Shown here: positions 40,681 through 46,118 of the stretch, piece after piece
Position numbering within the stretch: the stretch's first letter is position 1
Layout: each line of letters begins with the position of its first letter
DNA from: a bacterium
GTDB taxonomy: Bacteria; UBA8248
Assembly (NCBI GenBank): GCA_965261085.1
Contig: OZ253442.1
Location: forward strand, 3,424,001-3,488,000
DNA: 64,000 nucleotides
Direction: 5' to 3'
Translations under genes and position numbers: made by a program
The notes under the pieces: generated by a model
Seen by the model: only the letters and a program-made list of their open reading frames with translations
The model's database searches: none
What the model was told of the DNA's origin: nothing

Positions 40681-40744
40681 CCTGAACAATACTGAAAAAT
40701 ACGATAAATTCACGGTGTTTTTCGATAAATTAACGGTGTTTTTC
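40681..40744 (+). repeat. AT-rich motif with a 21-bp tandem unit; inverted copy at ~57545-57598
   Basis: cgataaatt(c/a)acggtgttttt twice, at 40702 and 40723. Confidence 0.8.
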
Positions 40745-40877: not shown

Positions 40878-40990
40878 GGGGGATAACCGGGCGGTTTTCA
40901 GCCCTCTTTCCCCTTCTTGCGGCGCTTATCCACAGAAATACACAACATTTGGGGATAAGGTGTGGGTAAGTGCATATATTTTGTGTATAT
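40878..40990. promoter_or_regulatory. Cluster of DnaA boxes upstream of nrdJ
   Basis: Perfect TTATCCACA 40926-40934; reverse-strand near matches at 40878-40886, 40950-40958, 40961-40969, 40982-40990. Confidence 0.7.
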
Positions 40991-41004
40991 CGATTTTTTT
41001 TGTA

Positions 41005-41073
41005 TTGACAGAGGGGAGCAAAGCATACTACATTTAGTGTTGTAGTTTGATTTCAGCATACTAAATATGTCCC
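41005..41073 (+). promoter_or_regulatory. nrdJ promoter with tandem NrdR boxes
   Basis: TTGACA 41005-41010, TACATT 41029-41034; NrdR-like boxes atactacatttagtgt 41025-41040 and atactaaatatgtccc 41058-41073; a third at 40940-40955. Confidence 0.8.
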
Positions 41074-41110: not shown

Positions 41111-44100
41111 GTGGAGTTTACGAGGCGTTTTACCCGGGCCGGAGAAGAGGCGTATGGCGACATCCACTTCGCGCCGCGCACCTCACGCATCATCAACCCG
41201 GACGGCTCGGTCGTCTTCGAAGCGAAGGACGTCATGGCGCCGGAGAACTGGTCCCAGGTGGCCGTCGACATTCTGGCGCAAAAATACCTCCGAAAAGCCG
41301 GCGTCCCCACCCACTCGAAAAAGATTCCCGAAGACGGCGTGCCCGAGTGGCTGCAACGCTCGGAGCCGGACACGGAGAAACTCGAATCCCTGCCCGAGGA
41401 TGAGCAATTCGGCAGCGAGCGAGACGCCCGGGACGTTTTCCACCGCATGGCGGGATGCTGGACGTATTGGGGCTGGAAACACGGTTATTTTCATGTAGAA
41501 GAGGACGCCAAGGCGTTCTATGAGGAGATTTTATTCATACTCGCGAGCCAGATGGCGGCTCCCAATTCGCCGCAGTGGTTCAATACGGGCCTCCACTGGG
41601 CTTACGGCATTACGCGCCCCGCCCAGGGCCATTTCTACTGCGACCCCGAAACCGGGGAAATGCTCCGCTCCACCAATGCCTATGAGCGTCCCCAGCCGCA
41701 TGCGTGCTTCATACAATCGGTGAAAGATGATCTCGTCAACGAGGGCGGGATCATGGATTTGTGGACGCGCGAGGCGCGCATCTTCAAATACGGCTCGGGC
41801 ACCGGCACGAATTTCTCGAGCCTCAGAGCAGAAGGGGAATCGCTCTCGGGTGGAGGAAAAAGTTCCGGACTGATGAGTTTCCTCAAGATTGGGGACCGTG
41901 CCGCGGGCGCAATCAAGTCGGGCGGTACGACGCGACGCGCGGCGAAGATGGTCACGCTCGACATCGATCATCCCGATATCGAGGAATTCATCAACTGGAA
42001 GGTGCATGAAGAACAGAAAGTGGCTGCCTTGGTATCAGGCAGCAAGATGTGCAGCCGGCATATGAACGCCATTCTCGGAGCTTGCCTGGAGGGGAAGAAC
42101 CTGGGCTTGAATGGCAACTTCCATCAGCCGGACAAGAACCCATCGCTCACCAAAGCGATACGCGCCGCAAGGCTCGCCGGTGTTCCGGATAATTACATTC
42201 ATCGAACCCTTCAACTCGCGCGACAAGGCATCACCGAGGTCGAGTTCGAGGAATTCGACACGAACTGGGAAGGCGAGGCCTATACTTCGGTGTCCGGGCA
42301 AAATTCGAACAATTCCATACGAGTTTCAGATGAATTCATGAAAGCCATCGAGAAAAACACGGACTGGAACCTGATTCGGCGCACCGATGGTGAAATTGCC
42401 GACTCCCTTAACTCGAAAGAACTCTGGGACCAGATTGGATATGCGGCGTGGTGCTGCGCAGATCCCGGCCTTCAATTCGATACGACCATCAACGACTGGC
42501 ACACGTGCGCCGCCGATGGGCGCATCAACGGTTCTAATCCCTGCTCGGAATATATGTTCCTCGATGACACCGCATGCAATCTCGCGTCGATGAATCTCAT
42601 GAAATTCCTGGATACTGAAAAGAACCATTTTCAGATAGAAGACTATCGCCACGCTATTCGACTTCTGACAGTCGTCCTGGAAATTTCAGTGCTCATGGCG
42701 CAATTCCCCAGTCCGGAAATAGCCAAACGCTCATATGAGTATCGAACCTTGGGGCTTGGATATGCCAATCTGGGCACCTTGTTGATGGTGCTTGGCATCC
42801 CTTACGATTCGCCGGAAGCGGAGGCATGGTGCAGCGCTCTTACCTCCATCATGACCGGCTGTTCGTATGCCGCCAGCGCTGAGATGGCCGGAGAACTGGG
42901 CGCTTTCGTCAGGTATCAAGGCAATCAAGAGCATATGTTGCGAGTACTGAGAAACCACCGCCGCGCAGCTTATTCAGTGCCTGAAGCCGAATACGAAATG
43001 CTCTCTAAAGCGCCAAAAGGTATCGCTACGGAAATCTGTCCCCATTATCTTCTCCAAGCGGCGCGAGAGGCGTGGGACGATGCTTTGGCCATTGGCTACC
43101 GAAACGGCTATCGGAATGCGCAAGCTACTGTCATTGCACCGACAGGCACCATTGGTCTGGTGATGGATTGTGATACAACGGGAATCGAGCCGGATTTTGC
43201 TTTAGTGAAATTCAAAAAACTGGCCGGAGGCGGTTACTTCAAGATCATCAACCAATCTGTTCCTCTTGCCTTACGGCATCTGGGCTATGACGATGAAGAT
43301 ATCCGTGAAATCGTCGCCTACTGCCGAGGTCGGGGCACCCTCACGAATGCGCCTCATATCAATCCAGAATCTCTGTACGCAAAAGGGTTTACCAGCAAGG
43401 CACTCGAAAAGGTGGAAGCCGCACTTGAAGGGGCGTTTGAAATCCAGTTCGCCTTCAACAAATACTCTCTCGGTGAAGACTTCTGTCGTGAGCAATTAGG
43501 GATCAATGAAGCACAAATAGCCGACTGGAATCTGAATCTGCTCGGAGCCATTGGTTTCACTCCAGAGCAAATTAGTGAAGCGAATGATTTCGTCTGCGGC
43601 AAAATGACGCTAGAAGGCGCGCCCCACCTGAAAGAAGAGCATTTGGCTGTTTTTGATTGCGCAAGCAAATGCGGACGCGAAGGTAAGCGCTTCATCAGCC
43701 CCATGGCCCATGTTCGGATGATGGCAGCGGCACAGCCTTTCATATCAGGCGCCATCAGTAAAACCATCAACATGCCCGCGGAATCCACGATTCAAGAAAT
43801 CTTGGACATATACCATGAATCGTGGCAACGGATGACCAAAGCCATTGCGATTTACCGCGATGGCTCGAAACTAAGCCAACCACTTTCCGCACAAAGCGAA
43901 GCGGAACTCTTCACTGACATTAGTGAAGAAGAACCAGTTTCCCATAGCGCTCCGGTGCACGTAGCCCAGCAGATTGTGCGACGGATTATTTACCAATCCA
44001 GAAGACGCAAGTTGCCTACCCGCCGTGGTGGATACACGCAAAAAGCCGTCATCGGTGGACACAAGGTGTATCTCAGAACCGGGGAATACCAGGATGGCTC

Positions 44101-44701
44101 TATCGGCGAAATTTTTATAGATATGCACAAAGAAGGCGCTGCCTTCAGAAGCCTCATGAACTGTTTCGCCATCGCGATTTCCCTAGGACTCCAACACGGC
44201 GTCCCCTTGGACGAATTTGTGGATGCCTTCGTCTTCACGCGCTTCGAGCCCGGGGGCATAGTCTCAGGCAACCCACATATCAAGATGAGTACGTCCATCA
44301 TCGATTATATCTTCCGTGAGTTGGCAGTTTCATATCTCGGACGCCATGATCTTGCACAAGTCGTGTCGGAGGACTTGAGGAGCGACACTATTGGGCGCCC
44401 CCAGGAAGAGATCCCGGAATTCGACACCGAGGAAGAAGAAGAGATTCGAACCATATTCCCGGGGCCAGATACGAGCGCTCCGCGCAGTAACCGAGTAAGT
44501 TTGAATTATGAGAAAGAATCCACTCACGCTTCAATGACGCCAATAACAGAAACGGACTACGCCTTCGATTCACGCATCGAAGAAGCTCGCGCCAAAGGGT
44601 ATGAGGGTGAAGCATGTAGCGATTGCGGTCTATTCACCTTGGTAAGAAACGGCACGTGTCTAAAATGTATGACATGCGGAGCAACGAGTGGATGTTCTTG
44701 A
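41111..44701 (+). CDS. nrdJ: Adenosylcobalamin-dependent (class II) ribonucleotide reductase
   Basis: [54 protein letters not shown]-terminal CxxC...CxxC. Confidence 0.96.
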
Positions 44702-44710
44702 AAATTATTA

Positions 44711-45005
44711 CCCGTCGTGGGGGAAACGGGCGGACTCTGCGACGGGACGAGAGTCGGGGAAAACCCTCGGAGGGTTATTCCCCGACTCTCACCAAAAATA
44801 GAATTCCCATTGAATTCTCTTGCTGCGGGGGAAACGGGCGGACTCTGCAGCAGGACCGGGAACCGGGGATAATACACCTTGTGGGTTGAATCCTCGGTTC
44901 CCATTTTAAGTTAAGCGTAATTCCCTGCTGCGGGGGAAACGGGCGGACTCTGCGGCAGGTCGAGAGCCGGTGAAGTCTCCTAGGGGGAGTTCTTCATCGG
45001 CTCTC
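44711..45005 (+). ncRNA. Tandem array of three two-hairpin RNA modules (44711-44790, 44818-44902, 44924-45005)
   Basis: Invariant gggggaaacgggcggactctgc at 44719, 44827, 44932; compensatory changes in both stems; G-U pairs indicate the + strand. Confidence 0.75.
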
Positions 45006-45013
45006 CCTTTTTT
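44962..45013 (+). terminator. Intrinsic terminator formed by the last hairpin of the array
   Basis: gagagccggtgaag...cttcatcggctctc followed by cc and T6. Confidence 0.65.
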
Positions 45014-45015
45014 AC

Positions 45016-45044
45016 TTGACACTCGAAGCTCCTTCACCTACCTT
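45016..45044 (+). promoter_or_regulatory. Sigma70-type promoter of the tRNA
   Basis: TTGACA, 17-nt spacer, TACCTT, ending 14 nt before the tRNA. Confidence 0.7.
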
Positions 45045-45058
45045 CAGGTTCCTTTTGT

Positions 45059-45134
45059 GGGGGTGTAGCTCAGATGGGAGAGCGCGTGGATCGCACCCAC
45101 GAGGTCAGGGGTTCGAATCCCCTCACCTCCACCA
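45059..45134 (+). tRNA. tRNA-Ala(CGC)
   Basis: Cloverleaf: GGGGGTG/CACCTCC with G3:U70, anticodon stem CGTGG/CCACG with loop ATCGCAC, TTCGAAT T-loop, encoded CCA. Confidence 0.97.
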
Positions 45135-45156
45135 GTACAGTTCCTTGAAATGAATA

Positions 45157-46005
45157 CTACGCATTGAGCATGACGAGAGCCGCCTCTCGTGTCCTCATAC
45201 CTTCTCGAACCCCACGCTTTTCTGCCACTTCATTCATGCATGAAATGACACCGTCTTCCCATGTGCTCATCACATCGCCAATACGCGCGCTCATGGCGCC
45301 GACTGCCGCCACTGCGATCCCCTCGCGCGCCAGATAGGGAAAAGATGCGATACCGGAATCATCTTTTCCCCTCCCTGCATCATTCGCAACAACACCCTTC
45401 AGATTGAGCTTTAAAACATGCGGAACGAGAGTAAGCCCGCAATGAGAAGCTTGGATAAAGACATCTTGGGGCCTTGCTTCTTTGATAGAGCGCAGGACGG
45501 GAATGCCCCATGAGGCGCGTATATTGCCCTCAGGTAAATGCTCTAATTCGTATATTCTATCGTGAAGACTCTCTTCGACAACCACCTTCCGGCCCACCTC
45601 GGCATTGAGCAGACAATCCGAGGCCTCAGCTATTGACTGACCAATTTCAACACCAAGGGACTGGGCTGCCCGATTCACATGGCCGACTTCGCCTTCATAC
45701 ACGGATTCACCCACCGCGAGTCTGGCGGACATGGTCTCACACGCCAACGCAGGCACATGATATTCCTGAGCCAAACACAAACCGCTGATGCCCGCATTAT
45801 CCTTTCCAACTCCCGCCGCATGAGCAACTACTGCTCTCGCCCCCAAGCGCATTGCCCAGGCAATCGTCATGCGTGCGGCGTAAGAACCTCCAATGAGAAC
45901 ATCCCTTTCCCCAACCCTCTCGTCAAAATATGTCATCGAATCCGCTGAGAGAACGCGGCCACGCACGTCTTCATGATGAATCGTCTGTTCATCTATCGCC
46001 ATCAT
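45157..46005 (-). CDS. Hypothetical protein with internal duplication (two AGxGKD...SAR...GV domains, YunC-like tail)
   Basis: AAGVGKDNAGI/DAGRGKDDSGI, MSARL/MSARI, VNRAAQSLGVEIGQ/MNEVAEKRGVREGM. Confidence 0.75.
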   Translation of the reverse strand: MMAIDEQTIHHEDVRGRVLSADSMTYFDERVGERDVLIGGSYAARMTIAWAMRLGARAVVAHAAGVGKDNAGISGLCLAQEYHVPALACETMSARLAVGESVYEGEVGHVNRAAQSLGVEIGQSIAEASDCLLNAEVGRKVVVEESLHDRIYELEHLPEGNIRASWGIPVLRSIKEARPQDVFIQASHCGLTLVPHVLKLNLKGVVANDAGRGKDDSGIASFPYLAREGIAVAAVGAMSARIGDVMSTWEDGVISCMNEVAEKRGVREGMRTREAALVMLNA

Positions 46006-46118
46006 ATTCTCTTTCATTAAGTCATGAACAAAATGTAATTTCTGGAGATATGTCAGCCCAAGAGAAACGCCCGGCTGATACCTCAACCGGGCGTCAAATT
46101 ATCATTCCCCATTGAGCG

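Follow-up and report, generated by a model that had tools for sequence, protein, structure and literature searches.

The 3′ untranslated region (3′UTR) of nrdJ, which encodes a class II (B12-dependent) ribonucleotide reductase on the 64,000-nt stretch of bacterial DNA analysed here (contig OZ253442.1, positions 3,424,001 to 3,488,000; hereafter the window), certainly carries a real, conserved and structured RNA element. This element is an array of three tandem units of two hairpins each, in which the first hairpin always presents the same G-rich loop, and it is a new RNA family. Its function may lie in base pairing. A second structured RNA, encoded elsewhere on the same chromosome, exposes the exact complement of the loop core, and the array could be a multi-site pairing platform in the nrdJ 3′UTR for this C-rich RNA, either as its sponge or as its target, a model-based reading to which we would give somewhat less than an even chance.

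The array is marked by a 22-mer (GGGGGAAACGGGCGGACTCTGC) of which the + strand contains three exact copies, starting at 44719, 44827 and 44932 (periods of 108 and 105 nt), and hairpin 1 of the first unit begins at the 10th base past the nrdJ stop codon (44699–44701). No further copy with up to three mismatches was present in the window (mean of 0.00 in 100 shuffles), and a search of the rest of the single-contig genome (4,267,820 bases; referred to as G000) yielded no extra copy either (3 forward, 0 reverse, control 0). Likewise, a covariance model of the unit (R1) matched this genome at exactly three units, all within the array. These data confirmed on the sequence the original prediction of a three-unit array with these periods and a U6 end, the chance expectation for the 22-mer being 0. 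That prediction had also placed an invariant 22-mer in hairpin 1; the invariance across the three units stands, but the 22-mer is not all loop, since its ends (GGGG and CUCU) pair with each other through two G-C and two G·U pairs, leaving hairpin 1 with a 12-bp stem and a 12-nt loop (Table 1).

Folding of the region 44702–45020 gave –164 kcal/mol on the + strand (z –8.35, with 0 of 100 shuffles as good) and –131.5 kcal/mol on the – strand (z –6.47). Only in the last unit is the hairpin followed by the U-run of an intrinsic terminator; the internal units have no U-run and end in tails of ACCAAAA or AUUUUAAG. A terminator-like scan match at 44982–45008 plus TTTTTT has a stem-loop of its own, paired unlike hairpin 2, and lends loose support to this hairpin-plus-U-run reading.

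Table 1. Coordinates of the nrdJ array, its surroundings, the C-rich RNA and the mapped contigs from RNA-labelled runs. Positions are those of the window unless another contig is named.
Feature	Position	Strand	Remarks
nrdJ, class II (B12-dependent) ribonucleotide reductase	41111–44701	+	1196 aa; GTG start 7 nt after GGAGGAG
Unit 1, covariance-model match	44709–44801	+	E 2.6e-17
Unit 1, hairpin 1	44711–44746	+	12-bp stem, 44711–44722 with 44735–44746
Unit 1, hairpin 1 loop	44723–44734	+	12 nt, GAAACGGGCGGA; invariant CGGGCGGAC at 44727–44735
Unit 1, hairpin 2	44749–44790	+	long covarying stem, conserved tip CCUCGGAGG, then tail ACCAAAAAU
Linker 1, AU-rich	44791–44818	+	read from sequence; putative endonuclease site
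Unit 2, covariance-model match	44817–44913	+	E 2.5e-14
Unit 2, hairpin 1	44819–44854	+	12-nt loop as in unit 1; core 44827–44848
Unit 2, hairpin 2	44858–44902	+	larger apical region
Linker 2, AU-rich	44903–44923	+	read from sequence
Unit 3, covariance-model match	44922–45016	+	E 2.8e-17
Unit 3, hairpin 1	44924–44959	+	core 44932–44953
Unit 3, hairpin 2 and end	44962–45013	+	hairpin 44962–45005, then CC and U6 (45008–45013); resembles an intrinsic terminator
Promoter-like TTGACA-17-TACCTT for the tRNA	45016–45044	+	our own reading; a scan gave no match and the –10 hexamer is weak
tRNA-Ala(CGC)	45059–45134	+	ARAGORN; Rfam tRNA, 64.7 bits
C-rich RNA	G000 contig 1, 2787324–2787399 (outside the window)	+	covariance model; ~65–76 nt, single-copy, unannotated
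Run X1, contig of 599 nt	44459–45057		
Run X3, contig of 732 nt	44133–44863		
Run X8, contig of 327 nt	44611–44937		
Run X6, contig of 249 nt	44567–44800		RNA label a guess

The conservation of the units was examined in a phylum set of 51 genomes, comprising the window's own, 41 others of its family and nine of three other families. A pattern search with up to three mismatches located the core in 32 of 36 other family genomes, and 73 units were taken from 27 genomes; 66 of them were distinct, and exclusion of a degenerate one (unit 2 of L030) left 65 for alignment. The 9-nt CGGGCGGAC was unchanged in every one of these 65 units. RNAalifold predicted 24 pairs, 17 of which had changes on both sides. 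Across the alignment 97.7% of the cells paired, compared to 89.8% in shuffles (none of 500 reached it) and 46.5–62.1% in slid-column controls, and 18 pairs had changed on both sides compared to 9.4 in shuffles. The stem of hairpin 1 covaried freely in its lower eight pairs, as did hairpin 2 in its long stem; sequence was conserved in the upper four pairs of the hairpin 1 stem, in the loop above them over its 3′ two-thirds, and at the hairpin 2 tip (CCUNGGRGG, at least 90% conserved). Specifically, two of the upper four pairs were G-C in 65/65 units and the other two were G·U in 54/65 (alignment columns 12–31) and 63/65 (columns 14–29), and these fixed G·U pairs indicate that the + strand is the functional one. 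The 3′ part of the loop, CGGGCGGA, was invariant together with the closing C, and the loops of hairpin 2 often read GGG instead of GGA. The covarying stems and the G-U evidence for the + strand, both first read from the three units of the window, are thus upheld on 65 units with shuffle and slid controls.

Hairpin 2 of first units is followed by an ACCA(AAA) tail (44791–44794 in the window) in about 25 of the 65 units. The combination of a 12–13-bp stem and a 3′ ACCA is reminiscent of a tRNA minihelix with its acceptor end, and cleavage at this place by RNase P or by an enzyme that recognises CCA is a speculative possibility.

The distribution of constraint over the unit also suits an array that binds a protein, which would recognise the invariant loop, the top of the stem and the tip of hairpin 2, with the repeats acting as a decoy or recruiting the protein to the nrdJ mRNA. 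Wobble pairs that do not change are a typical mark of shape-specific recognition, and the upper pairs of hairpin 1 barely covary and keep their wobbles, while the lower eight covary freely. Moreover, the conserved hairpin 2 tip has no proposed RNA partner, and multi-hairpin decoys are a known design, exemplified by CsrB and RsmZ, with which the array shares repeated hairpins and purine-rich, GGA-containing loops. However, the window's own genome (a single contig, 96% complete) gave no match to CsrA (PF02599, for which control genomes did give matches), Hfq (PF17209), ProQ (PF04352) or Ro60/TROVE (PF05731); Pfam searches of the neighbouring open reading frames (ORFs) found no conserved RNA-binding gene beside the array; and no candidate protein emerged. 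A CsrA sponge was rejected because there is no CsrA gene, and the idea in the original prediction that GGA motifs bind CsrA fails on the same ground and on the frequent GGG in the loops of hairpin 2. Unlike in CsrB and RsmZ, moreover, the loop of hairpin 1 is a 12-nt loop with the invariant CGGGCGGA and not A(N)GGA. The check for csrA and hfq that had been proposed with that idea found neither gene, nor was one for ProQ found, and an Hfq- or ProQ-dependent small RNA was dropped since neither chaperone gene was found. A protein would also leave unexplained why, in the second RNA of this family, the loop's exact complement stays unpaired, and we regard a protein-binding array as possible but unlikely.

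The unit model matched one to four adjacent units, at a single place, in 36 of the 41 other family genomes, and gave no match in the nine genomes from the three other families of the phylum. The five family genomes with no array match are all fragmented (280–560 contigs). Modules measure about 95–108 nt, and each of the 37 array-bearing genomes has one locus. The C-terminus of NrdJ lay directly upstream in all 36 array loci examined (in 36 of those 37 genomes), at identities down to 67–75%, and tRNA-Ala(CGC) followed the array in 28 of the 36, while two of the other eight end at contig ends. A real, covarying two-hairpin array on the + strand of the nrdJ 3′UTR, as originally proposed, is supported by alignment, model and synteny. 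Genus g5, with small AT-rich genomes, has a single unit that retains the loop core and the hairpin 2 tip, the core standing out as a GC island. In three genomes of one genus (L011, L018 and L019) two cores are 162 nt apart and the middle unit has kept hairpin 2 and lost hairpin 1, which suggests that units are able to decay piecemeal.

The array might also be purely cis-acting, in that it would shield the nrdJ mRNA against attack by 3′ exonucleases, end transcription and keep nrdJ insulated from the tRNA-Ala gene. Its hairpins are very stable, its last hairpin 2 with U6 resembles an intrinsic terminator, and it invariably separates nrdJ from the next gene. Protection and termination, however, need no invariant 9-nt loop, yet this loop was kept in 65/65 units across genera while the stems changed on both sides. 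It was kept even in AT-rich genomes, as a GC island, and the internal units are without U-runs. A role confined to cis is therefore improbable.

We also scanned one genome per species for two cores 83–113 bases apart. This returned at least 119 stretches, mostly chance occurrences in high-GC genomes, and among the stretches listed 25 were true arrays, labelled Nitrospinota, Nitrospinaceae or Nitrospinae in eight cases, Candidatus Tectomicrobia in two and only "bacterium" in 15. The family name Nitrospinaceae rests on those taxonomic labels; the Nitrospinaceae are major marine nitrite oxidisers. Single matches to the core pattern at L004 and L005 (outside the family) and L032 (inside it) had no surrounding hairpins and were left out of the alignment, and of the genomes with these matches G037 and G024 gave nothing with the unit model (G049 lay outside that search).

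Comparison of the whole window with Rfam 15 at gathering thresholds returned tRNA only, and with E up to 10 the region 44600–45150 gave 19 weak matches, none of them meaningful; the best inside the array (mir-7558, 32.6 bits versus a threshold of 80) lay on the – strand of hairpin 2. None of the Rfam families, including those with cuckoo RNAs, matched the array. With a covariance model built and no Rfam 15 family matching, the earlier statement that this was not a known family is upheld. Nor is the array a repetitive extragenic palindromic (REP) or other dispersed element, which is ruled out by the three copies at one locus here and the single locus per genome in all 37 genomes. A phage-borne element was rejected as well: the 15-mer ACGGGCGGACTCTGC occurred in 20 viral contigs, but 0/20 matched the unit model at E ≤0.01, and the viral occurrences are taken as chance matches. 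Full-text literature searches (small or noncoding RNA of Nitrospina or Nitrospinaceae; nrdJ UTR-derived RNA) returned no description of such an RNA and nothing on riboregulation in Nitrospinaceae.

The C-rich RNA came to light when complements of the array loop were sought. In the four g5 genomes the 8-mer TCCGCCCG occurred 6–11 times per genome, on both strands and including the antisense of the unit, and was no commoner than a reversed control. Among the 32 other g5 sites exactly one was orthologous in all four genomes, with one more common to two. The site shared by all four is an intergenic hairpin that holds the motif in an asymmetric internal loop. A pattern derived from this hairpin was found in 34 of 42 family genomes, and a covariance model (A2, R2) built from 12 sequences gave one strong match (E 1e-10 to 1e-25) in 39 of the 41 other family genomes and in the window's own, as opposed to one weak match (E 0.002) among the nine genomes outside the family. 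In the window's own genome blastn-short gave nothing useful for this RNA and the pattern search located the copy, which lies about 680 kb from the array on the chromosome. No Rfam family matched it, and an identity as a Y-RNA or Ro-like RNA was discarded on the lack of both a TROVE gene and an Rfam match.

The structure of the C-rich RNA was then judged on 30 homologues. Either 99.7% or 97.3% of the cells paired, depending on the alternative register of the outer stem, compared to 40–48% in slid controls, and eight or nine pairs had changed on both sides. A U·G at pair 11–65 in 14/30 homologues and a G·U at pair 33–51 in 24/30 indicate that the functional strand is the one with CCGCCCG. The segment CGCCCG was invariant in 30/30 homologues, and the apical loop was variable. 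Moreover, pair 16–60 is U-A in 17 homologues and C-G in 4, a switch in favour of a 10-bp outer stem with CCGCCCGA unpaired. In this fold CCGCCCGA forms an 8-nt asymmetric internal loop that exposes CCGCCCG. The hairpin sits between two opposite-strand genes in 24 of 27 loci, and the neighbours differ in g5; both observations, made on sequence, fit an independent gene. In the window's own genome a promoter-like TTGATA-18-GAGAAT with a TG lies 60 nt 5′ of the hairpin on the same strand, and a similar block was seen in G001.

The core of the array loop (CGGGCGG, invariant in 65/65 units) is the exact complement of the exposed CCGCCCG. The predicted duplex is 7–9 bp long, reaching 9 bp in 13 of the 30 homologues and 8 bp in the four g5 genomes. 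Both sides appear accessible, since the predicted median opening energy of the 7-mer was 0.1 kcal/mol in either RNA, with values of at most 2 kcal/mol in 26/30 homologues and 56/65 units. A local calculation of duplex plus opening energy gave –11.0 kcal/mol in the window's own genome and –15.3 kcal/mol in G026. This calculation was used in place of whole-length duplex folding between unit and C-rich RNA, which had produced long unrealistic duplexes with shuffles as good or better in 20/300 (window's own genome) and 80/300 (G026). For the C-rich target that the original prediction assigned to the fixed loop there is thereby a concrete candidate, a family-restricted RNA with an exposed CCGCCCG, the pairing being a predicted one.

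Thirteen RNA-labelled public runs contain part of the window, and four of them, from four studies, were mapped, all as assembled contigs (Table 1). All four contigs join the 3′ end of nrdJ to the array, three of them from RNA studies and the fourth from X6, a junction that leaves a single transcript unproven. The regions 43686–44090 and 45144–45600 (the opposite-strand gene) had no cover in the four runs, which is not evidence of absence. The X6 contig ends at 44800, inside linker 1, followed by 15 loose A-rich letters, a weak hint. The X1 contig spans the whole array, passes the terminator and stops at 45057, two bases short of the tRNA-Ala 5′ end (45059). Such an end could result from read-through and subsequent cutting by RNase P, contig ends being unreliable. 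Some of the runs containing the stretch are labelled sponge metagenome, from which no conclusion on habitat was drawn.

In the pairing model, nrdJ and the array would be transcribed together, presumably as a single RNA that ends at hairpin 2 and the U-run of the last module, and the modules might be separated by cutting in the AU-rich linkers. AT-rich palindromes lie at about 40950–41072 (e.g. 41024–41042 and 41057–41072), between a TTGACA at 41005–41010 and the nrdJ start, and they resemble what we take to be the consensus of NrdR boxes; a gene for NrdR is present elsewhere in the genome. Given these palindromes, the output of the array would follow the demand for deoxynucleoside triphosphates (dNTPs). 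The modules would then act by RNA–RNA pairing through the invariant G-rich loop, so that the one to four sites per nrdJ transcript would titrate the C-rich RNA as a sponge or decoy. Alternatively, the C-rich RNA may dock on the nrdJ 3′UTR and alter its stability. The pairing itself, its regulatory direction and its physiological output are what we infer here.

Several observations weigh against this model. The C-rich RNA was found by searching for the complement, and the match is therefore partly by construction; both RNAs are family-wide traits, which means that their shared distribution is not independent evidence; and with an invariant array loop there is no covariation between the two RNAs to read. 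The flanks of the C-rich segment vary without compensation (GUCCGCCCG in 13 homologues, GUUCGCCCG in 6, CUCCGCCCG in 4, GCCCGCCCG in 4 and AACCGCCCG in 3), so that only 7 bp are always available, and one of these seven is a G·U pair in 6 homologues. In the window's own genome the C-rich segment is predicted to be partly paired, at an opening cost of 4.8 kcal/mol, and an opposite-strand terminator-like hairpin beyond the RNA suggests antisense read-through from the neighbouring gene. The C-rich RNA also had no match in the array-bearing genome G025 (350 contigs). Pairing explains neither the conserved tip of hairpin 2 nor the ACCA tail. As to expression, assembled contigs give neither RNA ends nor levels, and DNA carry-over in RNA libraries is possible.

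A further point of this kind is that ACGGGCGG is also complementary to the universal CCGCCCGU of 16S rRNA, short matches of this sort arising by chance. From it follows a reading in which the array is directed at the ribosome, ACGGGCGG pairing with CCGCCCGU (which we take to be positions 1399–1406 in E. coli numbering) within the decoding centre or an intermediate of late assembly. The single 16S gene does contain ACACACCGCCCGTCA, and the best loop duplex in the rRNA operon reached –17.5 kcal/mol. However, the match was a post hoc observation, several per cent of 8-mers would by chance alone have a complement within the roughly 4.5 kb of rRNA, and a tRNA duplex was comparable (tRNA-Pro, –17.9 kcal/mol, the best among tRNAs; pairing with tRNA was itself discarded as unremarkable). 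Moreover, the 16S site is base-paired and buried in the mature 30S subunit, and nothing in such a role explains the restriction to one bacterial family. We find a ribosome-directed RNA scarcely credible. A related and very improbable variant has the G-rich loops target immature or free 30S subunits, with the C-rich RNA, whose CCGCCCGA would copy the rRNA strand, as a mimic that buffers the array; the two would link dNTP synthesis, through nrdJ transcription, to ribosome maturation or translation capacity in an organism in which no Hfq, ProQ or CsrA gene was found.

The loops could also find their C-rich targets in mRNAs. Under this alternative the modules would be excised as trans-acting, 3′UTR-derived small RNAs whose G-rich loops pair with C-rich mRNA sites, and the C-rich RNA would be unrelated. 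The layout would allow it, since its seed and terminator-like hairpins, the linkers rich in AU and the ORF upstream resemble the CcsR1–4 arrays described in PMC8034643, and a gene for RNase E/G is present in the genome. The expected targets were, however, not seen. TCCGCCCG was not enriched from –70 to +30 of 3817 crude ORFs of the window's own genome (16 sites versus 9–25 for seven control 8-mers); no complement of the 15-mer with zero or one mismatch was among the matches listed, which held only sites with two or three mismatches; and no perfect 8-mer site associated with an mRNA was common to all four g5 genomes. Ranking of duplexes over the upstream regions of the same 3817 crude ORFs gave many similar scores and no outlier. 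The nrdJ mRNA itself has no strong site for the array loop (best duplex –14.6 kcal/mol), and autoregulation by pairing with it was discarded for want of a good site. Trans-acting small RNAs of this type are accordingly quite unlikely.

In three g9 genomes (L222, L223 and L224) a shared CCCTCCCTCCGCCCGAGGGAYGCGCCATG at position ~1500 places the loop complement directly before a Shine-Dalgarno-like GAGGGA and an ATG. The motif occurs two to four times per g9 genome, so that it may be part of a repeated element and need not mark a single target gene.

As a pairing platform for the C-rich RNA, the array would join a set of known RNA sponges and decoys (the 3′ETS of leuZ, SroC and the chb decoy for ChiX), in which sites in by-products or UTRs titrate a regulatory RNA and the output follows transcription of the host gene. 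Those sponges have one site, depend on Hfq and are enterobacterial, whereas the array has one to four structured loop sites in a genome with no Hfq gene found, and its pairing is predicted. Kissing pairs such as RNAI/RNAII of ColE1 and CopA/CopT of R1 start from a G/C-rich loop–loop contact of 6–7 bp between RNAs encoded in cis on opposite strands and proceed to long duplexes. The predicted contact is similarly short, G/C-rich and between exposed loops, but the two loci are about 680 kb apart and the complementarity ends at 7–9 bp. We know of no described case of such a two-RNA, multi-site 3′UTR design.

The new RNA family is well supported and is attached to nrdJ, whose B12-dependent product is the organism's sole class I/II ribonucleotide reductase, in a genome in which none of the usual RNA chaperone genes (CsrA, Hfq and ProQ) was found. 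If the pairing is true, an essential mRNA would bear in its 3′UTR several structured loops as sites for another small RNA, the two forming a circuit encoded on the chromosome, and this would give a direct handle on how the supply of DNA precursors is coupled to other functions in bacteria that are hard to grow. Both covariance models can be used now for the annotation of metagenomes.

The closest architecture is that of the CcsR/cuckoo arrays. In the passages of PMC8034643 that bear on it, CcsR1–4 of R. sphaeroides are described as tandem homologous units that are co-transcribed with an ORF, derived from its 3′UTR and dependent on RNase E, and CcsR/cuckoo units, which also occur in other Alphaproteobacteria, as two hairpins with a conserved loop motif. 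The nrdJ array likewise has tandem two-hairpin units after an ORF, in the 3′UTR. However, according to the same passages, CcsR/cuckoo loops carry the C-rich anti-Shine-Dalgarno CCUCCUCCC in both hairpins, whereas the nrdJ array has the G-rich CGGGCGGA in hairpin 1 and another motif in hairpin 2; CCUCCUCCC is not found in the array loops (GAAACGGGCGGA; NGG / CCUNGGRGG). The host gene there encodes a small DUF1127 protein (CIN1 context), here it is nrdJ in 36/36 loci, and the phyla differ. OppZ and CarZ, in what PMC7398697 relates of them that is used here, are 3′UTR-derived autoregulatory small RNAs tied to the synthesis of their own mRNA, and they pair with the mRNA of their own operon; the array loop has no convincing site in the nrdJ mRNA.

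As for the surroundings of the array, the product of nrdJ matched Ribonuc_red_2_N (3.1e-41), Ribonuc_red_lgC (6.1e-125) and TSCPD (2e-10) in Pfam, and nrdJ is the sole gene of the genome to carry the ribonucleotide reductase barrel domain, which makes it the only class I/II ribonucleotide reductase. A weak scan match to an internal promoter at 44639–44666 was dropped because it falls within the coding region and relatives do not conserve it. The TTGACA block 3′ of the array is retained in relatives of the same genus. A specifier-like pairing with the anticodon of tRNA-Ala(CGC), noticed by eye, was also dropped, as it comprises 4 bp only. Convergent with this tRNA is a – strand ORF of 309 aa (45157–46086), whose Pfam matches (DUF1805 and IMS) are sub-threshold and cover stretches of their own only. 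Approximately 370 nt 5′ of nrdJ, at 40702–40744, the 21-nt unit CGATAAATTAACGGTGTTTTT is present in two tandem copies, exact to 95%, which could by their sequence be a binding site for a regulator.

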